This document shows, piece by piece, positions 77 through 43,942 of a stretch of DNA of 64,000 nt. A program made the position numbers and the translations under genes. The notes under the pieces were generated by a model. That model was not told where the DNA came from, made no database searches, and saw only the letters and a program-made list of their open reading frames with translations. The DNA is from a virus. The first letter of the stretch is position 1, and each line of letters opens with the position of its first letter. The DNA is taken from IMG/VR virus record IMGVR_UViG_3300045988_055118, positions 8,622 through 72,621 of that record; one strand, 5' to 3'.

Positions 77-601
77 TTTTACAAATCAATTATTTTTCCA
101 TGAATCATCTTTTAACCAAGGTCTGTCTTGTAGCCAAGTTCCGCTACCAAAACAGCTTCTAACAGCATCGTATACGGTAAGCCAGACTAACTACGACCCT
201 TTATATATAGCTCCAATGTTCTTTTGTACTCTTTGCTAAACTTGTTCTACAAGTTCTAGAATATCTTTTTGGACCTGTAATATTAACTTACCATTTCTAT
301 ATATCATAATTTAGCAAAATCTTCCTTGACTTTAGCTTTTATCTATTTTAATATGTTAAGATATTCCTTATATTCATTAATAACTTCAGAATCAGAAGTA
401 AGATTTTCTGAATAGCTATTATATGAATTGATTAAATCAAATTCTTCATCAACTGTAAGGAATCTTCTAACTATAGCTTTTACACAATCTTTGTAATTAG
501 GCTGCCCATTTAATAATACCTAGATAAAACTATAGTAAGTTTTTTCTTTTATGGTATTGTCTAAATCAAGTACTTCAACACTAATTTCTTTTATATCATA
601 G

Positions 602-1876
602 TTATAGTAATAAGTACCGTTCCCAAGTTTTTGGATTGTCTAAGGATAAACGTCCATTTGTATTCTATTCGGCTCTAACATAAGGTGTTATTTTAAAATT
701 TATAGGAAATTTGTATCTAAGCAAAGAATAGTGTAATCTCCTATTCTTACTTTTAAAATAGTAGGGTTTATTGTTATACATGAAATGCACTCGAAAATGA
801 TTGTCATAATCAACAACCTCTACAATGTGAATATATTTATTATAAAACTTAGATATGTTAACTTCTTTTCCATTCCAGTTAGAGAATTTCAATCCAGTTA
901 ACTCCTCTACCTTTCTCAGCAAGTTCTTAGAGTTGCAAAATTTCATCCATCCAAAATAAGACCTCATTCTTCTATTCAATTCATCTTTATCAATCTTATT
1001 CTATTTATATAGATTTATAAGCCTAAACATCCTCATTTTTATAGATTTTCTCAGTAGAACATGAGTATGATAGAATTTATAGCCTACGAAATCAATACCT
1101 CTGCTTTCTACAGGGAATATTTGATAATTAGGCTTCAACTCTAGGTTAAGAACCTGTTTCAAATATAGTTTTATAGATACTAATACATTTCTCAAATAAT
1201 TCTTGTCATTACCAAGAATCACAATATCGTCAGCATATCGAAAGTAGTACTTACATTTTAACTCCTCTTTTACCCAGTGGTCAAAATATGTCAGATATAA
1301 ATTTGCAAAGAATTGTGATAGATAATTTCCAATAGGAACTCCCTTCGCTGAATAAATTATTTCTTTCAACAGTTTTAATAGTTTTTTATCCTTTATCTTT
1401 CTCTATAACATTTCGTATAAAATGTCGTGAGTTATAGAAGGATAGAATTTTTTTATATCCATTTTCAAGCAATACTTTGTTTCTTCTGGATGTTTCTATA
1501 ACACCTTGAACAAATCATACTCTACTTTATGAATACCTCTATTTCGTATAGAGGAATATGTTTGGTCTATAAATATACTAGTCCAAATAGGCTCCATAAT
1601 ATTCATTATAGCATGGTGAGTTATTCTATCTGGATAGTATGGAAGTCTAAAGATTAATCTTTCTTTAGGTTCGTATATTATAAAGGTACTATATTCAGAG
1701 GTTTGATAAATCAAATCCCTTAACTTATCGGATAATTCCTTATTTTCTTTTAATCTATTCTTATCATGCTGCTTGATTCCACATCTAATAGACTTATTTC
1801 TTCTAGCTTTATCGTCAGCTAGTTCGATGTTATCTTCAGCGTATACTTTCTCGTGCAAATATCCTACACGTTTCAA
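602..1876 (-). CDS. DGR-type reverse transcriptase; one reading frame containing two in-frame TAG codons (1001-1003, 1496-1498) plus a third TAG (665-667) near the 3' end before the TAA
   Basis: ORF-track pieces 1496..1876, 1001..1369 and 665..979 are all in the same frame, and only TAG separates them (manual translation of 1370-1495 shows TAG at 1403-1405 and 1496-1498 and no other stop). RT motifs are present: DIKKFYPSITHDIL (motif 1/2), GVPIGNYLSQFFANLYL, FRYADDIVILG (YxDD). A TR repeat and a VR-bearing target gene lie immediately upstream. Alternative TTG start at 1876; TAA stop at 602-604. Confidence 0.8.
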
Positions 1877-2019
1877 TTTTTTATATATTTCATCGGAAGC
1901 GTTCGAGAATTAACCTACTAACACCCTTCATTCAACACTACGTTATCTTTTACCTAGAGGCAAGGATATTACTTAGCAAACTAAAAAAAAATAATAAAAT
2001 GTTTCTAAATATATAATAA

Positions 2020-2110
2020 CTCGACATTGGAATTGGCATTGCTGACGTCATTGTTAGAATTGAAATAGCTGAGACCTGCATTGCTGCCATTATTCGCGTT
2101 GCTGCCTACT
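2020..2110 (-). repeat. DGR template repeat (TR), 91 nt, adenine-rich (AAY codons), noncoding, between target gene and RT
   Basis: Near-identical to VR1 (2221-2311) and VR2 (29053-29143). All 20 and 17 mismatches, respectively, fall at TR adenines in the manual alignment. Separated from the RT start by a 143-nt spacer (1877-2019). Confidence 0.8.
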
Positions 2111-2193
2111 AGCAGTACTTTTTTGCCAATCAACGGTTTTTAGAAGTAATATCCTACGATTTATCATCTAAATCGATTTTTATATTGTATATC

Positions 2194-3501
2194 TTAAGAT
2201 ACTCTATTCAGAGTCCTGAACCCGACATAGGAACTGGCATAGCCGACGCCAATGCTAGAATAGAAATAGCCGAGACCCGCACTGCCGCCATAATCCGCGC
2301 CGCCGCCCACCCGCAGCGTGCGAAGCGCTGTGCTGCTTGCGTTGCAGTAATGGTAATCGCAAATATAAGTAGTAGCACTTCCTCCAACAGTGGATGGAAT
2401 TATTTCAGCGGTTTCACCTAAGTCAAATGCCTTAATATAACCATCAGATGCTACTTCGTATCCTGCAACGGTTTTCTCTCCAACTACGTCGGTAAATTCC
2501 GATACGTTAGTAGTTGTATAGACAGTGCTAATCTCATTAGCAGCTGCTCTCACTATAACTACTCCGTCCAGGTTAGTCCAAATGTCTCCAAACGGATTAT
2601 CGAACCCTCTCCAGCGAGGTACTTTAAATGTATGAGTTGCTACTGTATTTGTGCCATCTTGAGCTGTACATTCTGGAATAACTAAATCTTTTACTCCAGT
2701 GAAGTTACCAAATTCATTGCAGTAACCACAAGGCGTAAGTGGATATGTTGCATTATATCCTGACCAACTTGTAGCTGCGTTAGCCCAATCTGTAACTCCA
2801 AGTCCCAAACCCCCTTGATGATATCCATCCGCAGTTAACTCTGCATTATATGCAGCCTAAGAATTAAAATTAGCATATTCAATGACATAATTCCAGTAGA
2901 ATATCCATTTGTAATATTCATAGCATAGCAATTCTGAACCAGCATTTGTTGCATATGTTCTCATAGTAGCTCTAGAAATATTAGTTCTAGGCTTTCCTAA
3001 ATCACTTCTGAATATATCCTTAGTTTCTAATTCTGTAGTTAGATAATCATCGTAGTTAGCTCTATTTCCTCCACCTCTAAATGCAGTAGTAGTATTAACT
3101 ACTGATACAGCTTTTGGAGTTGCGGAGACTGTGGTATCAACTGTACTTCTGTATGCATCTATTAATAGTTCAGGAATTTCTACCCATGAATCATCAATTT
3201 TGACAGTAGAAGTTCTAACCCATCTTTTGTTTCCATCGCTGCCAGATTTTCCATAAAATTTAGGAGTATTAACTCTTACTGTTCCATCAGTTCCATCTAA
3301 GACAGATGGAGTTTCTCCGTCTTCTTTATAAGACCAGTCATCTGGAAACAGATAGTAATTTACTACATCATTGTTTGCTACACAACCTCTATACGCTGAT
3401 TGAATAGGAAGAGATTTATGTAGCAAAGGATTACCTATTCTAGTAAGTTCCGGAGATGCTACTGTAACATCCCATTCTACTCCATAGGAATATAAATCCA
3501 T
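2194..3501 (-). CDS. DGR target protein (C-terminal variable domain), TAG-interrupted; N-terminus extends further upstream through additional in-frame TAGs
   Basis: ORF-track pieces 2857..3501 and 2194..2808 are in the same frame, separated by TAG at 2857-2859. The C-terminal 30 aa are encoded by VR1. Terminates at TAA 2194-2196, which is followed by further in-frame stops (TGA, TAA, TAA), so TAA is a real stop here. Confidence 0.65.
2207..2220 (-). other. hairpin (TTCAG-AGTC-CTGAA) immediately 3' of VR1; candidate DGR target-recognition hairpin
   Basis: Perfect 5-bp stem with 4-nt loop directly abutting the VR end, analogous to the hairpin/cruciform downstream of VR in characterised DGRs. 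Confidence 0.4.
2221..2311 (-). repeat. DGR variable repeat 1 (VR1) at the 3' end of the target gene
   Basis: 91-nt match to TR. 20 differences, all at positions where TR has A. Locally GC-rich (gccgccgcccacccgcagcg) in an otherwise AT-rich genome. Encodes GGGADYGGSAGLGYFYSSIGVGYASSYVG. Confidence 0.8.
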
Positions 3502-4460
3502 ATTACTATTTAGCTCAGTAATCTACTTATCAAGCTTTTGTTGTGCCTTCTACAATTCTTCCCAAGCCTCATTTAGCGCTGTAAATTGCTCTTCTAGCTT
3601 AGAACTTGAATCTGCCCATTCAGCAGTACCATCTGCTGAGAAAACTAGCATCTATCCAGATGCTCCTCCAGATGGAATATGTTTATTTCCAGAAGTAGTT
3701 GGATGTACATAATTATTAGCATTATTAGCTATAGTACTTAACTTTTCCTTCTCAGTTTCAGTATAATTGGCTTCAGAAAGTCCCTTTCCTAACTCCTTAT
3801 CTACTTTGCCTTCAAGCTCACCCTTAGTAGCTAATTCACTAATATCCTAATGCTCAGTTAAATATCCACTATCATTCTGTAACTAAGAAGTTTTAGTTGG
3901 AATTGCATTAGCCTTGGCATATGTCGTATCTATAACATTTCCAGCACCATCGTAAGTAGCTTTTAAATCGTATGTGGTTTCCCCAACCTTTATAGATTTG
4001 ATTGCTGCCATATCATTGTATTATTAAAGTTTCATCAACTACATCGTGATCTATTCCCTCTATGGAAGCAGTTAGGTCCTCAACAGCCTTCTACAATTCT
4101 GCTTTAGTAGCATAGTTCTTGAGAACTTCCTAGTCTACTCCAGAGCCTCCTCCTATACTTCCTCCAACAACTTTTACTGGTTTGGCAGAACTCTTAAACT
4201 GTCCTTCAATATAAATTGTTCCCATATTGTTTAAAATATTAATTGTTCATTTTCTCCATCTACCTCTACACTAGAACCTGGCTATAAAGCGTCTATCTTT
4301 TTCTACAATTCGGCTACGGCCTAGCTAATTAGTTCTTCTACCTCAGCTTTGGTGTAGTATCTCTCTATAAGATATTCGCTCCTAACATATCCAGTATCTT
4401 GTAAATCTTTTTCTCCATAGGTGCAATAATAAGTATCTTCTTCAGTCTTACTATTCTCAA

Positions 4461-4652
4461 CTAGGTCATCATAATCAGCTTGTGGTAAGCATACAAGTTT
4501 TGGTACTTCTTCAGTAATAGCAACTTGCTTGCCTCCAGCAAATAGCCTGTTATCTTCTGTGGTAAGTTTAACAGAACTCTCAATAACTTGCTCAGTTCCT
4601 GTTTCCTCAGAAGGTTCTCCAGTTGTTCCCTATTGTACTTCTTTTTCTCCAA
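4461..4652 (-). CDS. fragment of TAG-interrupted late (structural) gene
   Basis: ORF ends at TAG (4461-4463). Surrounded by a dense run of in-frame TAGs on the minus strand, with no long ORF in any frame under the standard code. Confidence 0.3.
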   Translation of the reverse strand: MEKKKYNREQLENLLRKQELSKLLRVLLNLPQKITGYLLEASKLLLLKKYQNLYAYHKLIMMT

Positions 4653-5829
4653 TTTTCTAAATAGTAATATCAGAAGTTTCTACTGATGTAGATTTCAAAA
4701 GCTCAGTGCTAAATTCTTTAGCAGCAGCAGCCTAATCATCCTGATATTTTTTCTAGGTAACAAATATGAAATCATCATCTCCGGTTTCAGGAGAGTCTCC
4801 CCTTAAACTTTCTTTTGTTACGTAATCTTCGGCTATCTAATCTGATAAATCAGATAATGACTATTGAGTAGCATAAGTAGACTGAGCATTTTCCTTAGTA
4901 AGAAATTTGTCATCAACCTGCTAAATAGTATAATAAGCCTTAATATCTTCTGTAGTAACGTAGTTTCCAAGTTTTTGCAAACCTTGAACTATTTCATCAA
5001 TCTACTTCTTGGAGTAATAATTTGTAGCAACCCAGGACTGATATTGATTGGTAGTATGATAATTCTAATCCAAATATTCCTTAGTAATATAAACCTTTGC
5101 ATCATTTGTGACGTCATATACATAGTAATATGTATCAGGCTCTACCGTCCCTTCCTCTACTAACTTTAGATACTCTTCTTCAGTTAATGTTACTAAGTTC
5201 GGAATATCCGATTCAGTAGCAATCTAATCTTCACCTATAAATAATCCTTCAGACCTAACGTCTACTACTAGCTAGCTCTCTCCCTCTACTACAGGAGATT
5301 TTATCTATCCAACAGTGATGCTTTCTAAGGAACCATCTCCATCTACCTTAAGAGTTTTATCTAACTCGTCTTGGATGGCCTACTAATCTTCCTCATATTC
5401 TTTCTTTGTAACGAAGACAAAATCATCTCCTTCCATTCCCTCTCCTCTAAGACTTTCTTTAGTAACGAAAATATCGTCTGTTTCTTCCTTAGTATAATAC
5501 TTAGTCAGGGATAGAGCTAAAAAATCATTAGAGACATAATTAGTAGTTAATTCTTCCAGTGTAGCATAATCTGATAGGCTGGCAATAGTGTTATCTAAGT
5601 CTGTTCTAATCTATACTACAGTAGTATTAAGGGCCTTCTGTTTTAATTGCTCTTCTATCTTTTTTCCCCATTCCGAGGATAGGTAAAACTAGTCATCGTC
5701 TAAGCTATCCTCATATATATAATAATATGTCTCAGCATGAAGATACGTTTTACTTTCATCTATGGGCCTAAAATCGTCTGTAGTATTCTCAGACCATTCT
5801 TTATATTCAGCCTCTGTACAGGTGATTAT

Positions 5830-6069
5830 CTAGATAGATTCATAGGATGCTTTCCATCCTTCCTTGTATTTAATCTTAGACTTATCAATTAGCATATAAA
5901 TATTTCCGTTATCTATGTTAGCAACGGTCATACCTTGATAAGCATACTTCTCTGGAATAGAATAAAGTTCGTCTAAGTTATTAACGACTGTTCTATTATC
6001 GAGAGGCTTCGGAGTTTCTACGGTTAAAGCGACACCTAAGGTAGCATCACCTGTATATTTAAATGCCAT
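5830..6069 (-). CDS. fragment of TAG-interrupted late gene
   Basis: Ends at TAG 5830-5832; same pattern as neighbouring pieces. Confidence 0.3.
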   Translation of the reverse strand: MAFKYTGDATLGVALTVETPKPLDNRTVVNNLDELYSIPEKYAYQGMTVANIDNGNIYMLIDKSKIKYKEGWKASYESI

Positions 6070-7016
6070 TATTGTGATAGAATAAAGTTAATTTGATGTG
6101 GCAATGCTGAGGAGTAAGTATCTTTCTTAGTCCATACCTTGTAAGTAAATCCATTTATCTACTCGGTAGACGTTTCCCAACCACTTAGGTCTACATTTAA
6201 ATATCCAAGTCCTCCATCTACGGTAAATGAATTTAACTATGTGTTACTTCCTGGCAATTTTATAATAGCCTTACCACTTAGTGAAAATGTGATAGTTCCA
6301 GACGATTGTCCAAAAGGAACTAGCGCCTATTTAATCACACTATCAGTATTACCAGAATACCAAGGATATGTGGCTACTACCTAAGCGGTAGCGGAAATAG
6401 AACCAGCTTCTACTCTCTTATCTGTAACTTCTCCTTTATTGTTTATCAAATATTCTCCAGCGGCATAACTCACTGTACCAGAGTGAGTATAAGTACCAAT
6501 AGAATTATATGTATCAGACTCTACAGGAGAACTGTTATAAGTAATAGTTTCTTGTCTGTCAGTTTCTTCTCCAGCATCATTCTTTATAAATGTAAGTGTA
6601 GGAGTTAATAAAGCAGTTCCTACTTCTACTATTTGAGAAGTAAAACTATAATAAAGCTATGGGTATACTAAATCTCTAACTACTGTTGGAAATAGTAAAG
6701 TATCAATAATCTCATTAAAGGGCTTGCCCTTAAGTTTCTCTACTGTAGTCCCTTCAATTACTGTTGAAGTAGTATCATCTGGGAGTTCTGTCTAATAAGT
6801 AGCTATAGTTTCTAAGTTAGTTTGTATATTAGTAATACTTTCAGTATTAGCTTCTACTTTAGTATTTGTCTCTTGTTGTGCTTCCTAAGTTTTCTATACT
6901 TCTTTCTTTGTTTCTTCTAGAGCAGGTTCAAGATTCTTAACATAGATACCTGGAAGGATAATAGAAGAGGTTTCCTCTCCAATCTCCTATTCTATTAAAT
7001 GAATAGCATTATCTTC

Positions 7017-7355
7017 CTAAGTAGATAAAATCACCTCTAAAGAATTATCTTCCTTTAGTTCTATAGTTTTGGAATTTTGGAGACTATTCTTAATCCAATT
7101 AAGAATGTTTTTATCAACATCTATATTCTCAATAGCATTATTCAACTCAACTATAGCTTCATTGATTTTTACTATTTCTTCAGATAGATTATTAATCCCT
7201 TTTCTATTAGTATCAATTTCTCGTTGTAAATCCTCCTTCAATACAGATATAGAAGTTCTAATATTGCTTATATCGACTTTCAGTTCTTCTATTGCTTCTG
7301 TATTAGATTCATATTCACTAATAAAGTATAGGGCATAGTCTAGGGCATCCTTCAC
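7017..7355 (-). CDS. coiled-coil protein fragment (tail fibre/needle-like), TAG-interrupted
   Basis: Heptad-rich sequence EELKVDISNIRTSISVLKEDLQREI...; GTG start in track; ends at TAG 7017-7019. Confidence 0.35.
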   Translation of the reverse strand: MKDALDYALYFISEYESNTEAIEELKVDISNIRTSISVLKEDLQREIDTNRKGINNLSEEIVKINEAIVELNNAIENIDVDKNILNWIKNSLQNSKTIELKEDNSLEVILST

Positions 7356-8041
7356 AGTATTAATACCTTCTGCAACGTCACTAGTATAGGTCCATTTTTG
7401 TTCTATATACTATACTAGGTCTTTTTGCAGTTCTATGGTTCCACTAATGTTTCCCCACAATAGACTCTACTCATCAGCAATACCTAAGTTCTTTCTTACT
7501 TTAGCTTTTTCTAGTTCTGTCCTATATTCTCCTAAATAGTTATTTCTTAAGAGAGGTATAGGCTCACATTTTATAGGCTTACCCTTTTTACCACAAGGCA
7601 CTATATCTGCGTTACTTACCGAAGTGTAAATAGACTGTATCATTCTAGTTTAATAATTGCTATTTAATAAATTCGTGATTATCTAGTCTTACAGGTAGGT
7701 TAATAAAACAAATTAGATTAAGAATATCTTGATAATCTGGTTTATATCCCTTTTTGAGTTTTCTTAGAAAATCCTCATACCTTTTAATAGCCTTTCTCTT
7801 AAGAGCATCCACAACCTATACGTTTATGTCCATGGTGGTGATTATCACAGAATCCTCCACAGGTACGGAACATCGCTAGTAATCTCTCAGCCTCCATGAA
7901 TTGTTTAAAGCATATTAAATAATCTATAATGTTAAGAGTCATCCATATGAAATCTCGAGCAAATATATCTGCTTCCTAATCTCTAGTTAGACACTTATTT
8001 AATAAAGAGTCAAAGAGTTTCTTACAGTAGTTAATATAACA

Positions 8042-8347
8042 CTATTGCAGATTTCCTGTAAAGAACACGTCTACCTTACATTTTTTGATAGTAGTTCCTT
8101 CTATATTTCTTTCAAGGATTTCTTTTACAGTACATTCCTCTAGCTCTCCATCTACTTCTTTATATAGCTTCTCTCCATCAGTTATATAGATAGTTTCATA
8201 ATACTCCTTGTATTCATCAGATGAATTTTCATACCATTTCATATTAGGAAGAATTATGTGGTCTACTACATAATATCCATCTTCTTTCACCTTAAATGTA
8301 CAAGAGTCTAAATCCTCTGTATGGTCATTGAGAAGTACGTCTATCAA
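8042..8347 (-). CDS. fragment of TAG-interrupted late gene
   Basis: Ends at TAG 8042-8044. Confidence 0.3.
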   Translation of the reverse strand: MIDVLLNDHTEDLDSCTFKVKEDGYYVVDHIILPNMKWYENSSDEYKEYYETIYITDGEKLYKEVDGELEECTVKEILERNIEGTTIKKCKVDVFFTGNLQ

Positions 8348-11300
8348 AGTAGCATCTCCTATACTAACTTTTATGATAGTATTTAGGGTAGCACTTTCAC
8401 TATACTTATAAGAATCATAGGAAGTTACTACCTCTAAATCTTCATCAATATACTATCCATATTCCTTTGAAAAGTCTTCAATAGTTATTTCCCCGTTAAT
8501 CTGGGTATGTATATCAATACTAAATTCCATATTATAATAATTAAGACTCAGTAGTAGGCCATTGACCATATTGAGCAGGAGTAGAAAATGGTTTCCACTT
8601 ACCTTCTTGTCGTATACGTCTAGACATAAAAACTGAACTAAATGATAAACTAATATCTTGAGGATAGTCTGTCCATGTATATGACTAACCTTCAGGGGTC
8701 GGTGGTAGACTATTTAACTTACCAGCTGGTTCCCCATTCCAATAATAATTATAGTCATATGCTTTAGTTGGAGTAACAGTCGTTGTTTCATGTCCTTCCG
8801 AATCTACATATAGAGGATTTCCATCCTCATCTGTTTTCTGCTTATACTCAATAACTGGAGTTATTCCCTCAGTTCTAGTGTATATATTCTAGATAATAGT
8901 AGAAACATCGCTTGCTACAATCTCATAAATAGTAGTTCCCTGAGATTCGTCAGCCCCCTAGAAAGTAAATTTAGTTCTTTTCCAGATATATGGATTCTCT
9001 TCAGTTGGAAGTTCAAAAGTATCAGTCCACTATTTAGTAGATAATTTTATCTCAGATTCTTCAGCAGTGTCAGCAGGTAAGTAATGAATCTTAATAATAA
9101 TATTATTTACCGCTTCACTAGAACCAGAAAGGTCTGACACCTATTTAAATAGTTTCTTTAAATCTTCTTCCACATTTGATTTAGAACCAGAAGCATTACT
9201 AATAATTACTGAACCATCTGAAATAGGATAAATCTATTGCTAATCCTTATTATATACAATTGTTCCAGTTGCCATATTAATGTATTTGTCTTATTTTGTC
9301 ATTATATGGATTTCCATCATGAAGCTAAGCCAACTCTATTTCAGTTCTCTTTTCTTCTATATCCATTTGTCTATCTTTATAAGTAGAATCAGACTGAGCT
9401 TTAAGCCAGTTAACTTTATATTCTAACTGCATCTTCTACTATTCTAATCCTAGTCTCTATTCATCTAAGCTTTCAATCTTTTGCTGAGCTTTCTATAATT
9501 CTTGCTATAACTACTGAGCCTATTGAGAAGTTTCTTCTAATTTTTCTTGTAGTTGCTGAAGCTGATTATTTTCCTCTTTGCGAACTTGAACAGCTTTCTT
9601 AACCTTATATTTAAGGTCTGTCAGACTCTTAGATGTAAGAGCCTCAAAAATAATATCTGGGTCCATCTGTTGACTTTTTACGAACTCTGGAATGATTGCT
9701 TTTATAGTCTATAGATCTTCCATCACTTCTGAACTAGCAGTAATATGAATATCGTAGTCAGTAACAGTAAAATACTCAGGAAGTGCGGTGAATATCTGTT
9801 GATATTTATCCCCAAGTATAATAGTTCCAGTTAATCCTTTCTTATAAGTAACTTTAGCCTAATTAAGACTATCTAGTAGTATCTCGCAGGTTATTAAATC
9901 CATCTGCTAAAAATAGTGCTTAGTTACTATATACGAGTTAGCTACTCCCTACTTAATATTAGTAACTGCATCTCTAGTTTCTATACCGTTAAGTCGTTCC
10001 CTAAATACTCCAGTTATTGATGATGTAGTTTGTTCTACTGATTGAATAGCTAATTCAATAGCCTATACAGCCTATGCTTTTAAGGTATCATCAAATCCGT
10101 TATATATCTAGTTTGGAGCTTGCTGTCCATCATTCCTACCTTCTTGGCTTGAGTCTATCCACATGATACCACCTTTTTTATAGGCTAACCATTTTTGTAC
10201 TCGTTCTGGCCATTTAACTCCTAAGTTGGTAGGCAACAGAGACATATCCATAATAACTCCGGCAGTACCACTATTAGCTATTAGATTATCTCTATAATAG
10301 TTTAATAAGTCGTATCTATCCTACAGATGTGCACATTTTAATATAAGAGAATAAGGCTACTAAGAGCGATTTAAGAAATATACTCCATTTACCGATAAAG
10401 AACAGAAGTTGGGATTATCTTTAGACCTCATAACAGTCTTGTCTAATCCTCTAAGAATATATATCTCTTCTCCTATTCTGATAGTATTGTATCTCTACAT
10501 CACAAAATCATCATCTGTTTCAATCCATTCAACATCATAGACTGGGATTAACTAGAACCTATGAGCACTATATTCATTGTCTGGATAGCCGGGAATGGTT
10601 TCATGATTCTAATCTTCATTTACTACTGTACAAGTATCTCCATATACTCTTCTATAAACAGCAGCTGAATCATCAGCTCGCCATTCATCTTTTAGTCTTC
10701 TTAAATCTTCTCTAGATATTTCTTTGCCATATTTAGCTAAAATCTAACTCTTACTCATCCACTTTCTTACTACAACTCTATATGAGTTCCTTACATATGG
10801 AGATTCTGGATTTCTATCAACAAATGTATTAAGTGGGTTTAATACCTCTATTTCAATATTAGTTCCAGAAGCCGATGATTTCACTCTAAAGAATGTATAA
10901 CCAGTAATTAATAAGTCTGTTAGTAACTAACGTAACTTAGTAATTAAATCGGTTTCTCTGGATTGCATAATATAATGTAATATATTCTAAGCTGCAATTT
11001 CATATTGAGAAATAAAGGATTGGTCAATATCCTATATAATTTTATCTAACTAAGTCTTTACAGCTTTATCAGTAATATCCTTGCCATCAATAAACTTAAG
11101 AATTGAATTACTTAAATGGTCTTTCAAAAACTTTACTATTCCCTTGGTTATTTCTAGCTATTTTTCTCTTGTTATATTACTGATAGTATCTGAATCTTTG
11201 CAAGAAATTTTCGGAAGTATAGGAGTTCCTAAATATTCTCCAACTAGGGCATCTACGTGTTTCTTTAATAAAGGCGTAAACTCTACCGAAGTGGGGCTAC

Positions 11301-11389
11301 CTATTCCGAAGTTTTCTTCCAGATAACGGAACTATTCAGGATCTCTTTTACCATTATAATAATTATAAGCTTTCTGTAACTCATACTTA

Positions 11390-11851
11390 TCATATACAAG
11401 TTCCGCAATAGCCTCGTTTGTCTTGTCTATCAATTCCTTCTCTTTCATAACATAAATTATGTTGTTCTGGAGGAAGTTTAGTAGCGTTATAATACTTAAC
11501 TCTTTGTAACTTCCTACTTCTTAATTCTTCCTTAATAAATGGCAGAAATTCTTCGTCTGGTAAATCTGCTATTATTACTAATGGCATTTCTGACCTATCA
11601 AAGTTAAAAGAGACTTTATACCCAACTGGGTCTAAACTCTCAATATCTAGTCCGCCTATATACTCCATTTTGTACAAGTCCCTCATATATTCTAGGATCA
11701 CTTGTTTCAACTCTGTATGGGTCATCATATTCGTTTCTTTGCATATTAAGTTCAGGAGTTTTCTTAGTTGGAATAACTCCAAATCTTTTAATTCCTCTCT
11801 CGTCGTAATAGTAACCAAAATCTTGGAACTATTCAACTTCTTTCTCCACAA
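11390..11851 (-). CDS. hypothetical late protein (ends at TGA)
   Basis: 153-aa ORF; stop TGA at 11390-11392, showing TGA is used as a terminator in the late block. Confidence 0.4.
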   Translation of the reverse strand: MWRKKLNSSKILVTITTREELKDLELFQLRKLLNLICKETNMMTHTELKQVILEYMRDLYKMEYIGGLDIESLDPVGYKVSFNFDRSEMPLVIIADLPDEEFLPFIKEELRSRKLQRVKYYNATKLPPEQHNLCYEREGIDRQDKRGYCGTCI

Positions 11852-12062
11852 GTACGGGCTGTCTTCCTGATAGCTCTTGGTCTGCTAACTCAGTCATACC
11901 TACAGCGGCTACAATATCATACTTACCCTTATTTTCATCATTATATGCAGTGAACTATTCTAGCATTTCTTCGAACCATATAGTATGGCAATAGTCTTCT
12001 ATAAAGGCGGCTGTTAAATCAGTATGCTATTCGATTATAGTTTTTGTAGCAGGAGTTCCATA

Positions 12063-13769
12063 CTATTTAGTAGTTCCATTTCTAACGTCAGTTAGAGTAG
12101 CTCTTGGGCGCTTCATAAAATAGTTAAGGCATCCTTTTTCTCTAGCCCAAGTAACCATACCCATACGAGTAGCTTCTATATTTATTTTACAATTATAATA
12201 GCGAGCTAAACACATAGCTATTTTATAGGCTTCTCTGATGTCTCCAGGTCTATCCTTGTACATAGCAACATACTGAGGGTCATTCATACCAAATGCACGT
12301 TTCTTAATCGTTATGCAGAAATCAGACGGGTCTCTGGTTTCCTTAGAAGTCTAATTCGCTCCAATATCAATACCGTCTATACCTGCTACGTATAAGTCTC
12401 GCATCTCTTTATAAACTGGAACTTCAAAATCCTAGCCATTATCTTCTGCCTCCTATCTAAGCTTTTCCATTTGTTCTTTATATAAGTCAGACCATATTGG
12501 ATGCTCTAGAATTTTTACTTTACCATTGCTGTTAGGAATCCATTTAAAACCATCAATGTTATCCTAAGTATGTTTATTATTTTTGTAAAAATAATCAATA
12601 TAACCACATTCGGGTCTTGGACCAATTTGTTTAAGTCTTATATTAGCTATCTATTCGGCAACTAAAATTTTATTAAACTTATTAATACCTTCTAGATTAA
12701 ATGCTTCTTCTGCATTCCAACAACGTTCAGCACATTTCTTTAGGTAGTCTTCTGGTACAGCTAATAGATTATCTCGCTCCTCCTATAAGAATTTCTTATA
12801 TTCCACAGTATTACATACTCCTCTGTGGTCCATAAATTCTGGATTCAAAGATTGTATAAAGTATGGAATAAAGAATCCACTCTCTATAGTAGTCCCATCC
12901 TAAGTCCAATTATGTCTAAATGGAAGAATCTTATATGCTCTTGGATTATAGTAAATCTTTTTTAAGCCCTCTAGAGGAGCACCCATATCACCGCCAGTAC
13001 CTCCAAACAACATTGTTCCACGAGGCATACCTTGAACTTCACAAAGTTCTTGACCTTGTACCACAGCGGTATCAAGTCCAGGCCAGGAACCAGCTTCATC
13101 ATATATTAATAAATCTACACGGTCTCCACGAATGTTAGATGGTTTAGCTCCGTTAATTGCTACAACCTCAGATTTAAATCCTACGTCTTCAAACTAACCA
13201 TTTATTTTGATTTGTTTACCTGATTTCTTTCTCAAATCCTGGTCAATAAGTCGCAATTTAAAAAATCCTCCTCCAGTACAGGTATTTAAGAATGTAAGAG
13301 CATTGTCAAACTTACTAAAGGTACCCTTAAGGAAGGTATCATTAAAGCAAGTAATCATAACCCTACTTCTTCTAATAACAGAGTACATACGAGCAGAAAG
13401 AGAGGCGTTTATTTCAGAGAATCCAATAGAACGAGCTTTCATTAAAGCTGCGTGCTTGTGTAGCACCCTAGCCATCTATAGATAATGAAAGAACATATAA
13501 TGTGATGCAAAGAATATTGGGAAGTCATTATCAGTACCCTCACCAGAGGCTTTCTACTAGTCAATAGTAGGTAACTAATAGAAATTTAAGAAGAAGTAAT
13601 TATCTCCAGTAATGGTGTATCCATTAACTGTCATTCCATACTTACATCTTCTATATTGCTCTTTCCAAAATTCGTTGTACCGCTTACTATCTCTAAGGTA
13701 GGGACAGTATTGACCAGTTCGTTTATATACTTCCCTAGTCTCGGTAAACCAATCTGGATTAAAGTCCAA
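12063..13769 (-). CDS. candidate terminase large subunit, TAG-interrupted
   Basis: ORF-track pieces 12063..12287, 13194..13475 and 13575..13769 share one frame and each ends at TAG. KARSIGFSEINASL resembles the RQxG(K/F)S/T terminase ATPase P-loop region. The C-terminal piece (RPGDIREAYKIAMCLARYY...IEATRMG) is terminase-nuclease-like. The assignment rests on motif resemblance only. Confidence 0.3.
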
Positions 13770-14819
13770 TCCATGAGTTTCGTCAATAGGTCTGTATCCA
13801 GTTATTTCATAAGATAAGGTAGGGTCAAATACTTCTATTTTATCTCCTATTTTAACATCCCAATAGTCAGAATTTCTGACCCTTTCCTCTCTTATTTTCT
13901 ATACTAATTCTCTAGCTTCTTTAGCATCCTCTTTCTATTCTTTTTCTCTTACCTAATCTACAATATTCTATATTTCTTCAGGTAATATCTTTTTTCTTGG
14001 CATAATTAAAAGTCTCCTGGGTCAAAACCATCCACAGCTCCAGCTCTAACAGTAGATTGTTCAGTAAGTTCTTTCTTAACCTAGTCTTCTAGTGTTATGA
14101 GTTCTTCATGAACTTTGTGAAGGGTAGCCATTTCCTTCATTACTTTTTCAGCCTGGAATACTGGCTTGCCGTTATTATCACGCTCATTTAAATCTACAAT
14201 AGTTTCGAAATAATCAATAAACTAGTCTGCAGCTCTTTTAGCTGCTTCTAGTAATTTTATTGACTTGTTTGAATCTTGTAACGCTCTGTATTTCCTACAA
14301 GCTTCTCTAAATATAGGGTCATTAAATTCTGACTCTGTCAATCCAGAATCACTAATAGCTTCGTCATGTCGTTCATGTTCCGAATACTAACTGTACGGAC
14401 TTTTCCAGTCTATAGCTAAATAAATGTAAGATAGTTCTCTAGTAGCTCTATCCTTTTCTGCAGATTTATCCCTCTAGATTAAAGCCTTAAATTCCTTAAC
14501 TAGCAATATCTCTGGTTCATTTATTTCTAGCTATTTAGTTAAAGTGTTATAGTTAAATACATTCATAATCATTAATCATTATCATACACATTAGATAATC
14601 TTATTATTTCTTTTTCATTTTGGAACCGCACTTATTGACTTTCATTTTGGAACCACAAGCGTCTTTCTTAGCATATTGTTTTCTGTCAGGAACCCATTTT
14701 CCTCCCTGGAAATTACCCTTATGTCCCTTATTGGCCATAGTTTCCTAATCATTGTATTTATTGATTGATATAGAATCTCTTGAGGCTTCGTCTCTAGCAG
14801 ATTTCATATCTTTCTTATA

Positions 14820-15029
14820 CTAAGCTCTTCCAGCCTTAAATTTATCAACTTCATTAGCTTTCTTAGTAACTTTAGTTCCTTTTTGTGCTTTCTGGCAAGC
14901 TTTACAGATTCTACCGCCTTGCTTAAAATATACAAGCTCTTCTCCTTCTGGACATACTCCTTTTAGCTTCTTATAATACTCAAGCTTAGCTCCAAGCCTA
15001 GCCATTACTCCTCCTTGCATTTTCTGCAT
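14820..15029 (-). CDS. small basic late protein fragment
   Basis: Lys-rich 69-aa ORF ending at TAG 14820-14822. Confidence 0.3.
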   Translation of the reverse strand: MQKMQGGVMARLGAKLEYYKKLKGVCPEGEELVYFKQGGRICKACQKAQKGTKVTKKANEVDKFKAGRA

Positions 15030-15392
15030 AAATTCCTGATACTTAGCTTTAATGCCGTCTTCACCTAATTGTTCAGCATAAGCTTGTAAATCCTATTCAG
15101 ATTGTACTTGTATTCCCTACGCAGCGGCATCTTGTATTAGATATGCCATAAATGCTTTTTGTAATTCTTCCTAGTTAGCCATTACTCTTCTACTTTAATT
15201 AAATCCTTAGTATTAAACACTGCTTCCTACATAAGTCCGGAATCAGTAAACCATCTACATCTTAATCCTCGTAATCCTTGGTTATCTTTAAATAAAGCTG
15301 CTTCTCTTCTTAGAACAAGCATAACTGGAGAATGCATTACTTTACACTACCGTAAAGTAACACAATCCCCAGGCTTAAAATAAACTTTTTCA

Positions 15393-15995
15393 TCAATTGT
15401 TTCCATACTTCAATTCGTTTCTTCTTTCAGTTAGCTTTTCGTTAACTACAGCCATAATTCTGTTCTCATTAACTACAACAAATCCAAACTTGTAGAACGG
15501 AACCATGCACTCGCTAGCTATTGTATAGAATACTATATCTCCAGGTTTTAGGAACTCACACTTGTGCCCAACCTCAATAACAGTACCCACTTTAATAAAT
15601 TGTTGTTCTTCTTCTATTTCTCCTGTTTCATTAGATTTATATGTTGGAGCAAACCCACCTAAGTCTGTAATTAATCCACTCTTAGTAGTTTTAATTTTTT
15701 GAAACGGATTTTGTTCGAAAGGTTTAATTAATGCATACCCATACATAGGCATAATTTCTACACCATTCATATCCTCAGATAATGATTTGGCGTAAGATTC
15801 TAAAGCTGCATTATGTTTCGAGAATTTATCTTCTAATTCATCTACTGCTGTATTGAATCTTTCCTGTTTTTCTCTTAATAAAGTTTTATCTGCAGCTTCT
15901 CCATTTACTATAAGGTGCTGTCCTGTACCTTCCATACCAGTTATAGCTAGTGCTAGTTTCTCATTACTGTTCAATTCTGTTCTTAAAGTTTCCAT
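15393..15995 (-). CDS. GroES-like domain protein with N-terminal coiled coil
   Basis: Intact 200-aa ORF (TGA stop, no TAG). The C-terminal half has GroES-like spacing (ALIKP...KTTKSGLI...GTVIEVG...LKPGDIVFY). Confidence 0.35.
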   Translation of the reverse strand: METLRTELNSNEKLALAITGMEGTGQHLIVNGEAADKTLLREKQERFNTAVDELEDKFSKHNAALESYAKSLSEDMNGVEIMPMYGYALIKPFEQNPFQKIKTTKSGLITDLGGFAPTYKSNETGEIEEEQQFIKVGTVIEVGHKCEFLKPGDIVFYTIASECMVPFYKFGFVVVNENRIMAVVNEKLTERRNELKYGNN

Positions 15996-16096
15996 AATTC
16001 ATTTTACCATTTACATAAATCACAATGTTCATCTTCTATTCTAGTTTTGTTCTCTAGTATACAACCACACTCCTCACATACTTCTCCAAATGAAGT

Positions 16097-16342
16097 CTAT
16101 AATTTATGAGGACAAGTATTACAAATATTTAATCTTGTGGTTGCTAAATCTTGATTAATTCCAAATATATGGAAATATATACTCTTCAATATTACTAAAG
16201 GTTTAGTAAATATTGCTTTAATCCATTTCTTTGGCATCTTTTCAGTAGGTTCTTGAGTCATAAGTATATAAGCCTTAGTAGGGTTAGCCATTACTGGAGT
16301 CCCATATAGTAATAAATTATTTACCATTTCTTCGCAGGACAA
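16097..16342 (-). CDS. hypothetical protein
   Basis: 81-aa ORF; overlaps the next ORF by 22 nt. Confidence 0.3.
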   Translation of the reverse strand: MSCEEMVNNLLLYGTPVMANPTKAYILMTQEPTEKMPKKWIKAIFTKPLVILKSIYFHIFGINQDLATTRLNICNTCPHKL

Positions 16343-16536
16343 TGCTTCTTCTCATTAGGTATCTTTAATTCCAGTAGACATCCACATCCTTTTATATACC
16401 CTTCTTTTGGGCCAATACTTATGTCATTGTTTTCTGGATTTAAATACAACTGTCCATTACATATTGCATCTTCTTGATTACATATTGGACAGCGTCTACA
16501 TATTTTCCATCTTTCTTCTATTTCCTCTAGTGTCAT
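16321..16536 (-). CDS. Cys-rich zinc-ribbon-like small protein
   Basis: CRRCPIC...CNG...CGC...HCP pattern; TAA stop. Confidence 0.4.
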   Translation of the reverse strand: MTLEEIEERWKICRRCPICNQEDAICNGQLYLNPENNDISIGPKEGYIKGCGCLLELKIPNEKKHCPAKKW

Positions 16537-16538
16537 AA

Positions 16539-17453
16539 TTAATATTCAATACGTTGACGTTTCTTTTTATTTTCTGCCAATATAGATTCTTTCTTGTAAA
16601 AAGAAAGCATTCTTATTACTTCATCTTTTAAGTATGGTAAGTGATATACTGTCATGTTATCACTGTGGTCGAAGTGTACTAAAACTAAATCTTCAATTTC
16701 AAATTCTGGGTTTTTCTTCTGAATCATCCAGGCGTAAGTACTTAGCTGAAGGGCATAATGCCAATAATTAACATCATCTAAATTATTTAGAGGATACTTC
16801 ATCTTAACTGATGTCTTAGTTTTAGAATTAAAGAAACTCTTTGTTTCTATTTTTTTATTAGTCTTCCAGTCACCAATAATTATCTTATTACCTCTTTTAA
16901 CTAATAAGTCAATTTGTCCAGCTATTCTTAGTTTTCCGTCCTCAGATACTCTAGAGATTAGATACTCAGGATATACCCCATTCTCCAAATCTAGATTGTT
17001 ATAGTCTTTTATACACTCAAACTTGCCACCTATTTGATATTTACTTAGGTCTATATCCTTCTTCTTTTTGTAAAAAGAGTTTTCCAAATCTGCATGGATT
17101 CTAGTTCCTCTCTCGCAAGAGTTTCTGTTCTCCATATCCCATGCATCTAAGATAGCTTGTTGTTCTTTATTAAACTCGTCTTCTGTAATGTTATGAAGTT
17201 CAAGTAGAACTTTGTCAAATTTCTTAGTATTCAGCAGAGACTTTTTCTCGATAGCCCAATCTTCTTTAGGTAGAAGTTTCTCTAGTGCTTTATAAGCTGA
17301 CCAGAACTCTTTATCAAAGGGTTGGGTGAAAGAATGAATTAAAGTCGTTACAGATATAAATTTCTGTTCTGGCTTTGTAACATCATAATAAATATGAGCT
17401 TCCTCTTCGAAAGCTATGTTCCCATTTTGTTTTGTAATTTTACTTTTGTCCAT
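16539..17453 (-). CDS. PD-(D/E)xK family exonuclease (RecB/YqaJ/Cas4-like fold)
   Basis: 304-aa intact ORF. IAGQIDLLVKRGNKIIIGDWKTNK (D...D/ExK) followed by YALQLSTYAWM (QxxxY) motifs. Confidence 0.55.
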   Translation of the reverse strand: MDKSKITKQNGNIAFEEEAHIYYDVTKPEQKFISVTTLIHSFTQPFDKEFWSAYKALEKLLPKEDWAIEKKSLLNTKKFDKVLLELHNITEDEFNKEQQAILDAWDMENRNSCERGTRIHADLENSFYKKKKDIDLSKYQIGGKFECIKDYNNLDLENGVYPEYLISRVSEDGKLRIAGQIDLLVKRGNKIIIGDWKTNKKIETKSFFNSKTKTSVKMKYPLNNLDDVNYWHYALQLSTYAWMIQKKNPEFEIEDLVLVHFDHSDNMTVYHLPYLKDEVIRMLSFYKKESILAENKKKRQRIEY

Positions 17454-17567
17454 TAGTCATAATTCATTTAATCATTTATCACATTTATCTATATTTATTT
17501 GATACTTTTCAAGTATATTAATATTCTTTGTAAGATACAAATCAATAAATAATACATTATATTAAAA

Positions 17568-17909
17568 ATGTCTAATATGACAAAAATGGTAACATTTGGA
17601 TGTCCAATTTTTAAAAACGGGTCAGGCATTCATATTAAAGAGAAAAACAAAGGTAAATTTACTGCCTCTGCTAAGGCTGCAGGATAGTCTGTACAGGAAC
17701 ATGCTAAATCTGTACTAAACAATCCTAATGCTACTCCTCTTCAGAAGAAGCGTGCTAACTTTGCTAGAAACGCGGCTAAATGGAAACACGAAGATGGAGC
17801 TAAGATACATAAACCAAGTGGACATAGATCTATTCTAGATAATGGATGGATTCCTACTACTAGATTAAAGAAAGGAAATTATGGATTAATTAAAACAAGA
17901 AAGCAATGA
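17568..17909 (+). CDS. small basic protein with one in-frame TAG (recoded)
   Basis: ATG 17568, TGA 17907-17909, single in-frame TAG after ...AKAAG. Not in the ORF track because it is split by the TAG. Confidence 0.4.
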
Positions 17910-17984
17910 ACGCTGTAGTTAAATTAATTAAAGAATTTATACTTAAGATATATCTTTATTTACTATTTATATTTAATAAGTAAT

Positions 17985-18176
17985 ATGGACTATAATAGAG
18001 CAACTCTTTATGCGGCTACTGGTCGTACTTTATTACTCCCTGGCTGGAAAGGGTATTTTTATTGGGACTATACTAAGAATGAATTAAATTTTAGAAATGG
18101 AGACTATCATTTAGATAACAAATAGCTCAAGGAGAAAGGAGTTATGGAACGTAATGATTGGTATTATATAATATGA
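17985..18176 (+). CDS. small protein with one in-frame TAG (recoded)
   Basis: MDYNRATLYAATGRTLLLPGWKGYFYWDYTKNELNFRNGDYHLDNK-TAG-LKEKGVMERNDWYYII; ends TGA. Confidence 0.3.
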
Positions 18177-18301
18177 TAATTAAAAATAATATTATACCGT
18201 TTGGAGGTTATAAAGTAATTAATCTGTTTGGATTAATATTTACTAAGTCGGATTTGACTGATGAGGATAAGAATCACGAGAATATCCATTCAGTATAGAT
18301 T

Positions 18302-18520
18302 TTGGAATGTGCAATAGCGTTTGCAATACTTATATCTATATTATTTGGATTAGAATGGGTATGGTTAGCTATTCCATCTTTCTATATCTGGTATGGATTA
18401 GAGTATTTAATTATACGACTATTAAGACTTAAAGATTCTCAAAATGATTGCTACAGAGATGTAAGCTTTGAAGAAGAAGCTTATATGAATGAAGACAATT
18501 TACAGTATCTAGAAGGATAG
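18302..18520 (+). CDS. small membrane protein (ORF ends at TAG; may read through 15 more codons to TAA)
   Basis: Hydrophobic N-terminus AIAFAILISILFGLEWVWLAIPSFYIWYGL. Confidence 0.35.
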   Translation: MECAIAFAILISILFGLEWVWLAIPSFYIWYGLEYLIIRLLRLKDSQNDCYRDVSFEEEAYMNEDNLQYLEG

Positions 18521-18609
18521 AGAAAGATGTTTTCATGGATAAAATATCTAAAAGTTAACGCATAACAAAATAGGCGAGCCTAGACTTAATTGTCTAAGTT
18601 CGCCTATTT

Positions 18610-18813
18610 TTATTTACTATTATACGTACAAGTGATTCTGTTTGGCTCTTCCCACCAAGGTTTATCTGAAAGTGGAGTTCTGATGCTATTGGGCCAATTT
18701 ATAATTGGAGTAGTTTCCTCTACTATAGCCTCCATTATTTTAAATAATGTATCCAAGTCTAGCTCTGGAAGCAGCTCATGAATATTAGTTATTGTTTTCT
18801 TATAATTTATCAT
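18610..18813 (-). CDS. hypothetical protein
   Basis: 67-aa ORF with TAA stop; opposite-strand ORF 18590..18781 judged spurious. Confidence 0.3.
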   Translation of the reverse strand: MINYKKTITNIHELLPELDLDTLFKIMEAIVEETTPIINWPNSIRTPLSDKPWWEEPNRITCTYNSK

Positions 18814-19032
18814 ATCCTTTAAAAGTGTTGTTAATAATTACTTTCTCTATCGTAGTATTTACTGACATATTAGTACGATACACTTAGCTTATTTAAGTTG
18901 TCTAGATAATCTAAGAACCATTGTTCGTTTTGTTTTCCTTCTTCTACAATAGTATTAATTAAAGATTCTGTAGCTAATAGTGTTATTTCTGCTAGTTCCT
19001 CTAATTCCGATTTAGTAAGTTCGTTATATTTT

Positions 19033-19347
19033 TCAATCAAGTTTAACATAATCCATCCAGTCTTTTATATATGATTTACATTCTTCCAAATCTGGATAGA
19101 TACTTGTTATAGAGCATCCAGTTTTCGGATTTTTAAAGTGGTGCATCTTAGCCTCTTCTTTTTTCTCCTCTTCTGTATTTCTATTTAATGTTCTATTCCA
19201 ATAGTTGTACTTTTCATCTAACATTTCCATATCACATTCCTCTAATATTTTCATATTAGGGTTATTCATTATCTTGTCGTATTTTCTCTTTAAATTAGAG
19301 ACTTTGACAACATCATTTCCATTTAATACAACTGCACACTGTTTCAT
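19033..19347 (-). CDS. hypothetical protein
   Basis: 104-aa ORF, TGA stop. Confidence 0.4.
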   Translation of the reverse strand: MKQCAVVLNGNDVVKVSNLKRKYDKIMNNPNMKILEECDMEMLDEKYNYWNRTLNRNTEEEKKEEAKMHHFKNPKTGCSITSIYPDLEECKSYIKDWMDYVKLD

Positions 19348-19571
19348 TTTAATACCTTATAAGTACATATCTTACCTATCTGTTTTCCTTGAACTGTTAT
19401 TTGCGGAAGAAAATAGCAGGCTTGATTCTCAAATTCTTGAGGTACAAAGATATAATCAAACTTACTTCCAACTACCTTCTCACAAACTTTATTCCAATCG
19501 TCTCCCTCTTCTATAATAAGAGTTTTAGCTCCTGTTGGAGTTACTACATAATTCTCATTTAATTTTATCAT
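19344..19571 (-). CDS. hypothetical protein (start trimmed to avoid tRNA)
   Basis: The ORF-track N-terminus overlaps the suppressor tRNA. Internal Met (MIKLNENYVV...) at 19571 chosen as start. Confidence 0.35.
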   Translation of the reverse strand: MIKLNENYVVTPTGAKTLIIEEGDDWNKVCEKVVGSKFDYIFVPQEFENQACYFLPQITVQGKQIGKICTYKVLK

Positions 19572-19589
19572 AACTATTAATTTTGGCGT

Positions 19590-19661
19590 TGCCCTACTAG
19601 GATTCGAACCCAGACTAAATGATTTAGAGTCATCTGTGCTGACCATTACACCATAGGGCAG
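19590..19661 (-). tRNA. amber suppressor tRNA, anticodon CUA (reads UAG), Gln-type
   Basis: Manual fold: acceptor TGCCCTA/TAGGGCA with U1-A72 (Gln hallmark), D arm GTGT/GCAC, anticodon stem GATGA/TCATT, loop CTCTAAA (U33, CTA, A37), T arm CTGGG-TTCGAAT-CCTAG. D and T arms nearly identical to the genomic tRNA-Gln(TTG) at 34204. Confidence 0.8.
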
Positions 19662-19798
19662 TAACTTATTTCTCTTTTAGAGATTTATTTTCTGCTGCCA
19701 ATTTCTCTAGTTCTTTTCTTAATTGTTCATTTTCGTGAAATAAAGCCTGCATAGTAGCGTTGATATTAGCTAATAGTATTCTCATTTGAGCAACCTAT

Positions 19799-20200
19799 TC
19801 ATACATAAGCTTTCAGTTGTTCAATTCTCTTTTTAGCTATATCTGACAATGCCATTTTGAATTTAGCAATACCAGCTCTTACTGTTTCTAACTTGCCGCT
19901 TTCTAAGCATTCTTGTATTTTATGAACTTCAAGCTCTCCTAGATATTCGCATACATCTATAAATAAATCATCATCTAGAGATTCTAAATATTTCTGGAAT
20001 TGGTCTACCTCTTCATTAGCTAGACAGCTTTCTTCCTTCTATCTTTCATAAGATATTAATAAGAACAAAGAATCGTCGGTAGATTCGGACTTAATAGTTA
20101 GCCCATTACCAGACATATAATATTCTTGATTCGTATTAATTGCCTCAACTAGCTATTTAAACTAGTCCTAATTTAACAATGTTTCTAAGTCTGTAATCAT
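19799..20200 (-). CDS. hypothetical protein with four in-frame TAG codons near N-terminus
   Basis: ATG at 20200; frame open to TGA at 19799-19801 if TAG is sense. Confidence 0.35.
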
Positions 20201-41406: not shown

Positions 41407-41479
41407 ATCTCAAACATGGGCCGTTAGCTCAAATGGCTAGAGCGCTGGTTTTGCACACCGGAAGATAGGGTTCGAGTCC
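41407..41479 (+). tRNA. tRNA-Ala (anticodon TGC) with G3·U70; lower acceptor stem mispaired
   Basis: D GCTC/GAGC, anticodon stem CTGGT/ACCGG, loop TTTGCAC, T arm TAGGG-TTCGAGT-CCCTG. Only 4 of 7 acceptor pairs form. Confidence 0.5.
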
Positions 41480-41508
41480 CTGCGTGTCCACAACAAAATT
41501 AAATAATT

Positions 41509-43936: not shown

Positions 43937-43942
43937 CATAAT

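Follow-up and report, generated by a model that had tools for sequence, protein, structure and literature searches.

A stretch of viral DNA of 64,000 nucleotides, positions 8,622 to 72,621 of IMG/VR record IMGVR_UViG_3300045988_055118 (hereafter the window), is best explained, with high confidence, as part of a genome that mixes two codes: in a block of packaging genes, tail genes and a diversity-generating retroelement (DGR) the codon TAG would be read as glutamine (Gln) and decoded by a phage-encoded tRNA with the anticodon CUA, tRNA(CUA), and the rest would follow the standard code. The source appears to be a large crAss-like phage of the gut belonging to the Zeta group of the Crassvirales. 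A first-pass annotation, made by a model from the letters and a list of open reading frames (ORFs), had proposed that TAG is reassigned between 600 and 20200; the upper limit stands, the lower one has to be moved to base 86 or before, and the recoded block probably continues past the start of the window. In particular, TAG would serve as a Gln codon in two stretches of the minus strand, one starting at or before 86 and reaching 15406 and the other covering 19666 to 20200, and in a small plus-strand cassette at 17568-18565. The coordinates of these and other features are collected in Table 1.

TAG as a sense codon in the minus-strand block

Once TAG is taken as sense, long ORFs tile the minus strand contiguously between about 86 and 15406. 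The share of this strand between 600 and 15200 that falls in ORFs of 150 aa or more is 12% under the standard code; it rises to 99% if TAG is made a sense codon, stays at 12% for TGA and reaches 16% for TAA; the recoding is specific to TAG, because coverage rises only when this codon is read through. The longest ORF free of TAA and TGA reaches 793 codons, against a maximum of 188 in 200 shuffles. In the ten large ORFs of the block, here called late (4561 codons), the coding frame contains 110 TAG, 0 TAA and 0 TGA, the two off-frames contain 137 and 273 TAA and 59 and 232 TGA, and the terminal stops are TAA in eight cases and TGA in two. When all 18 recoded genes are considered, 126 in-frame TAG are found and not a single in-frame TAA or TGA. 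The open frames extend far beyond chance and are specific to TAG, and both TAA and TGA are kept as stops in the recoded block.

The boundaries between ORF fragments quoted in the first-pass annotation all fall on in-frame TAG codons of the minus strand, at 665-667, 1001-1003, 1403-1405 and 1496-1498 in the gene of the DGR reverse transcriptase (RT), at 2857-2859 in the tail gene, and at 12063-12065, 13194-13196, 13476-13478 and 13575-13577 in the gene of the large terminase subunit (TerL). Gene calling with TAG as sense, the check that the same annotation had suggested, gave long ORFs with homology support for TerL, the tail protein, the portal and the RT, whose products match these families over the full length. 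Translation table 11 splits these genes into dozens of fragments that cannot be annotated and code 15 leaves them intact, and the practical message is that the minus-strand block should be annotated with code 15. A reassignment of TGA or TAA was rejected, since neither brings any gain of ORFs in the late block; the gain obtained in the plus-strand block with TAA as sense is an artefact in which same-frame neighbours, for example the genes of the NfeD-like and SPFH proteins, merge.

The many short ORFs seen under table 11 are also what pseudogenes, a decaying prophage or assembly errors would produce, but we give this explanation next to no probability. Frames are interrupted by one type of stop only (126 TAG against 0 TAA or TGA), and the same genes, also with TAG, recur in dozens of independent assemblies with portal identities of up to 99.9%; the stop-codon bias, the independent assemblies and the ORF coverage test together refute it.

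Glutamine as the probable amino acid encoded by TAG

TAG most probably encodes Gln in the recoded block, because TAG interchanges with Gln codons in related genomes, because Gln stands at the corresponding sites of relatives that lack in-frame TAG, and because the tRNA(CUA) is of the Gln type. The Gln codons of the 18 recoded genes would then comprise 126 TAG, 101 CAA and 38 CAG, a TAG share of 48%. Protein homologues from databases were not used as evidence for Gln, as their DNA carries 18-19 in-frame TAG already translated as Gln; codon-level DNA alignments and two relatives without in-frame TAG (L048 and L050, about 50-57% identical; such L numbers denote relatives throughout) were used instead. 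An alignment with the crAss001 portal from PDB was set aside as too distant at the TAG sites.

Among recoded relatives, TAG interchanges with CAA or CAG at many columns of TerL and of the portal, and at the portal TAG columns Gln codons account for 117 of 369 distinct alternative codons against a background of 6%. In the relatives without in-frame TAG, the TAG sites align with Gln and not with gaps or stops, as the first-pass annotation had anticipated. The portal of L048 has Gln at 14 of 28 TAG sites, compared with a Gln frequency of 8% in the portal (binomial p=7e-9), and at the TerL TAG columns 16 of 110 residue comparisons give Gln when L048 and L050 are pooled, the background being 2.8% (p=8e-8).

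Another amino acid, namely pyrrolysine (Pyl), Glu, Lys or Tyr, is a very improbable meaning for TAG. Glu is indeed the second commonest residue opposite TAG in the relatives without in-frame TAG, and Pyl is the label offered by ARAGORN, a program that names any tRNA with a CUA anticodon “tRNA-Pyl.” However, Gln is enriched 5-6 fold at TAG columns, TAG is exchanged with CAA and CAG far more than with any other codon, and the tRNA itself is a paralogue of tRNA-Gln without the unusual architecture of tRNA-Pyl, with no Pyl genes seen. The “tRNA-Pyl” label was rejected in favour of a Gln-type suppressor.

The amber suppressor tRNA

The tRNA(CUA) lies at the head of the minus-strand block and its position upstream of TerL is kept in relatives. 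Its closest paralogue is the phage tRNA-Gln(UUG), with which it shares 78% identity, the best of 27 comparisons with the other tRNAs of the window; in the two molecules the D and T arms are near-identical and the pair U1:A72 is present in both. The phage encodes this suppressor, which would be derived from tRNA-Gln, would presumably be charged by the glutaminyl-tRNA synthetase (GlnRS) of the host, and would compete with host release factor 1 (RF1) at UAG. The familiar counterpart is supE (glnV44) of E. coli, an amber suppressor tRNA-Gln(CUA) that, through a change of its anticodon to CUA, competes with RF1 at UAG and inserts Gln there. The suppressor described here differs in that it is encoded by a phage, has become fixed in the lineage and is required by essential genes, and in that its charging with Gln is predicted.

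Distribution of TAG outside the recoded block

The coding strand switches near 20.3 kb, and the GC skew is negative over 1-20 kb and positive over 20-64 kb. The 29 largest genes of the plus-strand block contain 0 TAG against 220 CAA or CAG (Fisher p=1.5e-41 versus the late set). This block had been called TAG-free in the first-pass annotation, which is correct inasmuch as no gene needs read-through, but six of the 77 ORFs terminate at TAG, the stops being 48 TAA, 23 TGA and 6 TAG. The six ORFs lie within 22805-47382 and end at 23267, 24910, 43101, 44946, 45828 and 47380; each is followed 2-8 codons later by an in-frame TAA or TGA. The median distance to the backup stop is 5 codons for the TAG-ended genes and 10 for the others, a weak difference (p=0.04), and at these six ends termination and read-through would both be tolerated. 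The same backup-stop pattern is noted for Zeta phages in PMC12386605. At the TAG stop at 23267, the sequences compared for conservation were identical only.

TAG is likewise avoided in two minus-strand islands (Table 1). Together they hold 1 TAG against 28 CAA or CAG (Fisher p=1e-6 versus the late set). The absence of TAG reported between 15.3 and 17.5 kb is real for the island as a whole and fails for one of its genes, the zinc-ribbon gene at 16004-16342, whose conserved domain contains an in-frame TAG. In L001, with a TerL identity of 72%, the genes of the island at 15393-17453 are TAG-free and their neighbours contain up to 39 TAG, and the genes of the island at 18610-19574 are TAG-free in both L001 and L003. 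To judge from these comparisons, the avoidance of TAG is gene-specific and conserved, because homologous genes are TAG-free again in L001, a divergent relative that displays the same mosaic. This suggests that the island genes are needed before suppression sets in.

The reverse situation is found in the plus-strand cassette at 17568-18565, for which the TAG-containing small genes announced by the first-pass annotation were recovered: its three ORFs hold 4 in-frame TAG. The PHROG match of one of them spans a TAG, and the last is a membrane protein that matches phrog_15610 (9.5e-32), a family labelled “protease.”

A possible temporal switch and its alternatives

The plus-strand block and the two minus-strand islands, avoiding in-frame TAG, would be translatable by an unmodified host, and their standard-code genes would be translated first. 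The TAG-laden genes would yield full-length protein only after the suppressor tRNA has accumulated, which may delay the expression of late genes or protect them. This order is that of the lytic-switch model invoked in the first-pass annotation, the recoding of stop codons in late and lysis genes set out by Borges et al. (10.1101/2021.08.26.457843). The window agrees with it in having structural genes recoded and replication genes in the standard code; the preferential recoding of lysis genes is not seen.

Several observations weigh against this interpretation. For this phage, gene function and strand are the sole grounds for the terms “early” and “late.” Only one lysin candidate can be recognised, a glucosaminidase that may be a signal-anchored endolysin; it is free of in-frame TAG and belongs to the standard-code block, so that within the window the lysis-timer part of the model finds no support. 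Other lysis genes may lie outside the window or have gone unrecognised. A Pfam scan of the 30 larger plus-block proteins, in a window that shows roughly one third of the genome, revealed no gene for a release factor (RF2 included) or for GlnRS. The pair C3:G70 of the suppressor corresponds to G3:C70 in the phage tRNA-Gln, and for this reason charging with Gln is deduced from the alignments rather than from identity elements. Finally, the tRNA(CUA) gene does not lie in the standard-code block; it belongs to the minus-strand block, where two ORFs with TAG precede it, and therefore a simple order of tRNA first and late genes later is not evident.

It could be argued that TAG is sense throughout the genome and throughout infection, as in plain code 15, and that the plus-strand block has few TAG by chance, with no temporal switch. 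The six plus-block TAG stops would be harmless under such a code, being backed by TAA or TGA within 2-8 codons so that the six proteins would merely gain a few residues, and a suppressor-type tRNA is present in the plus block as well. Nevertheless, this appears unlikely in view of the 0 TAG among 220 plus-block Gln codons and 1 of 29 in the islands, compared with 48% in neighbouring genes, and of the avoidance conserved gene by gene in the divergent L001. That avoidance has been kept argues for selection against TAG, as expected if the genes must be translated without the suppressor.

A further proposal concerns the purpose of recoding rather than the timing of lysis, and is compatible with the decoding of TAG by the Gln-type tRNA(CUA): the suppressors would act as a weapon that disturbs host termination, or the TAG-laden late genes would be shielded, as neither the host nor rival phages nor defence systems could use them. 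PMC12386605 puts it forward for Zeta phages in which suppressors are retained although nothing is recoded. In the present case it is favoured by the unrecoded lysin candidate and by the second suppressor of the lineage, whose ochre-type anticodon matches no recoded codon; several relatives, on the other hand, have only a damaged copy of this second tRNA or none at all, which speaks against its being essential. On balance, we consider a weapon or shield function possible but rather doubtful.

Relation to the Zeta group and to known recoded phages

The features of the lineage match published descriptions of the Zeta group, and the window is assigned to this group on that ground. Prevotella or Bacteroides have been suggested as hosts of the clade. 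According to PMC7886860, Zeta genomes measure 145-192 kb, are rich in tRNAs, inteins and introns, and encode a PD-(D/E)XK nuclease among their structural genes; suppressor tRNAs permit them to read through UAG or UGA, “mostly in late phage genes.” Zeta genomes of 176-189 kb listed in a 2025 survey (PMC12386605) have 23-27 tRNAs, about 35% GC, a DGR and amber suppression with a CTA suppressor, and amber codons in the RT genes are noted there as well. In the window, TerL and portal are homologous to those of crAss-like phages, 28 tRNAs are present, the PD-(D/E)XK nuclease of the structural block is found at 16539-17453, and the GC content is 35.9%. TerL shares 26-28% identity with annotated crAss-like terminases (tblastn), and its full-length homologues sit on contigs of 180-195 kb; the whole genome would measure roughly 185 kb, of which the window is about one third. 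IMG/VR contigs with a portal 99.7-99.9% identical exist, and in the GenBank phage collection the matches to the window are of at most 69% identity. The Zeta signature genes for MCP, IHF and the giant RNA polymerase block were not recognised in the window, no test having been aimed at them, and are presumably in the unseen two thirds.

The TerL genes of the relatives L044, L049, L031 and L051 carry insertions of about 0.3 to 1.2 kb, and one related TerL protein (P0003, 1131 aa) contains Hom_end and LAGLIDADG domains, indicating an intein, a known trait of the Zeta group.

Block-wise amber recoding, CTA suppressors and DGRs have already been published for the Zeta lineage, and the phenomenon, the lineage and the model are all known. 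With respect to the Zeta amber-suppressing phages of Yutin et al. (2021, PMC7886860) and of PMC12386605 (e.g., ctoVY1, cthgQ11 and 3717_85572), nothing essential differs: the CTA suppressor, structural genes and a DGR RT that contain amber codons, the DGR aimed at the tail protein and the GC content of about 35% are shared. The published Zeta table gives CTA suppressors only for the clade, whereas the window and at least seven IMG/VR relatives also have a UUA tRNA by the structured RNA RAGATH-14. The standard-code replication block, the recoded structural block and the phage suppressor are common to the Borges model and to the multi-code genomes of Mgcod (10.1101/2022.06.29.495998); the window departs from them in that its candidate lysin is free of in-frame TAG, its main suppressor is transcribed in the same direction as the recoded genes, and no “code-change module” with RF2 or an aminoacyl-tRNA synthetase is seen in the visible third of the genome. 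Proteomic proof of TAG as Gln in two crAss-like phages is provided by Peters et al. (2022, PMC9523058); the reading of TAG as Gln in human-gut crAss-like phages is common to both studies, which differ in the phages concerned and in that the present one works from sequence alone. This phage is one more clean example of a genome mixing two codes in blocks and opens no new question, two-code crAss-like genomes having been described since 2014-2021 and proteomics being available for related phages. A short follow-up may be merited by the ochre-type second suppressor next to RAGATH-14, by the phage tmRNA and by the DGR with its second target in the standard-code block.

Table 1. Features of the window, with strand, number of in-frame TAG and, for the ten large late ORFs, the extent of the open frame when TAG is sense
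Feature	Position	Strand	In-frame TAG	Open frame with TAG as sense	Remarks
Small ORF	86-307	-	2
Small ORF	304-681	-	3		phrog_11557, 3.5e-11
DGR reverse transcriptase	602-1876	-	4	602-1909	TTG start, TAA stop; Pfam RVT_1 1.1e-19
DGR template repeat (TR)	2018-2115	-
Tail protein and DGR target	2194-4011	-	6	2194-4020	phrog_5302 5.4e-85 over residues 147-601
DGR variable repeat 1 (VR1)	2219-2316	-			C-terminus of tail protein
Structural/unknown ORF	4231-6069	-	20	4231-6087	TAA stop
Structural/unknown ORF	6069-7643	-	12	6069-7649	TAA stop; weak tail-protein match
Structural/unknown ORF	7799-8530	-	3	7799-8713	TAA stop
Structural/unknown ORF	8541-9275	-	7	8541-9290	TAA stop
Portal protein, 723 aa	9277-11448	-	28	9277-11520	Pfam P22_portal 8.5e-7; PDB 7qog crAss001 gp20 3.6e-11
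TerL, 787 aa	11640-14003	-	20	11640-14021	TGA stop; phrog_6681 1.2e-62, residues 91-712
ORF upstream of TerL	14006-14566	-	5	14006-14575
ORF upstream of TerL	14604-15182	-	5	14604-15194
ORF upstream of TerL	15182-15406	-	2
TAG-poor island	15393-17453	-			GroES-like protein, two zinc-ribbon proteins, PD-(D/E)XK exonuclease
Opposite-strand cassette, three small ORFs	17568-18565	+	1, 1, 2
TAG-free island, four small ORFs	18610-19574	-			Directly downstream of tRNA(CUA)
Amber suppressor tRNA, anticodon CUA	19588-19660	-			Head of minus-strand block
First two ORFs of minus-strand block, upstream of tRNA(CUA)	19666-19806, 19799-20200	-	1, 4
Standard-code block	20407-63088	+			77 ORFs, 78% coding density, 26 further tRNAs, tmRNA
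RAGATH-14 structured RNA	21749-21919	+			Rfam RF03145, 174.3 bits vs gathering score 149.1
Second suppressor-type tRNA, anticodon UUA	21946-22016	+			In standard-code block
DGR variable repeat 2 (VR2)	29048-29145	+			Inside plus-block gene 28703-29263; 27 kb away, other strand
tRNA-Gln(UUG)	34204-34276	+			Closest paralogue of the suppressor
tmRNA	43376-43939	+			Rfam 63.6 bits vs gathering score 47; 564 nt vs 374-position Rfam model
Glucosaminidase, candidate signal-anchored endolysin	46638-47132	+			N-terminal membrane anchor

The second suppressor-type tRNA, RAGATH-14 and the tmRNA

The second suppressor-type tRNA is found 26 nt downstream of the RAGATH-14 RNA and the pair is kept in relatives. 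With its ochre-type UUA anticodon this tRNA would decode UAA as well as, by wobble, UAG, and yet both blocks use TAA as their main stop. Among relatives the anticodon at this position is CUA in some, UUA in at least seven IMG/VR contigs and CUG, that of an ordinary tRNA-Gln, in L044. Three relatives (L056, L057 and L066) have a copy of the tRNA with a deletion, and L062 has lost it but kept RAGATH-14. The most economical reading is that of a redundant Gln-derived suppressor under relaxed constraint.

A two-suppressor system, in which a fixed tRNA(CUA) is joined by an early-block tRNA that has shifted from CUG to CUA to UUA, always about 26-56 nt after RAGATH-14, seems to us decidedly improbable. 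If RAGATH-14 did control the production or processing of the second tRNA, the pair would constitute a regulated “code-switch” module, and the UUA form would also promote UAA read-through, perhaps buffered by the phage tmRNA; such a regulated module is unlikely. A UUA tRNA beside RAGATH-14 was not found described in the searched passages of PMC7886860, PMC12386605 and Borges et al., and a search on RAGATH-14 found no papers in the library consulted.

The tmRNA, missed by ARAGORN at default settings and recovered at low stringency, has a G3:U70 acceptor pair and is predicted to encode the tag ATYSEVRMAA*.

The diversity-generating retroelement

The window contains a complete classical DGR, made up of the RT, the TR, VR1 and VR2. 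In the repeat core, every mismatch between the TR and both VRs occurs at a TR adenine. The second target of the retroelement lies in the standard-code block.

Before the TTG start of the RT, a poly-A tract at 1877-1890 on the minus strand is present as A5, A6 or A7 among relatives, and an upstream ATG is in frame with the RT only in the A7 form. An ATG start reached by frameshifting at the A6 tract was considered and rejected, since the variation in length fits an untranslated leader before the TTG start.

Other genes of the standard-code block

The plus-strand block includes replication and repair genes encoding AAA ATPases, an SNF2/ResIII helicase, an RNase H and a radical-SAM protein. Auxiliary genes are found at 30488-32989, 53976-54992 and 56870-59622, and encode a pair of NfeD-like and SPFH/Band 7 proteins, an OmpA-like outer-membrane protein, and NAMPT together with a PRTase, the last two suggesting NAD salvage. 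Furthermore, an 83-nt tRNA at 39406-39488 is called Tyr by ARAGORN with the unusual anticodon AUA, and an additional tRNA at 41418-41490 is detected by Rfam only (39.5 bits).

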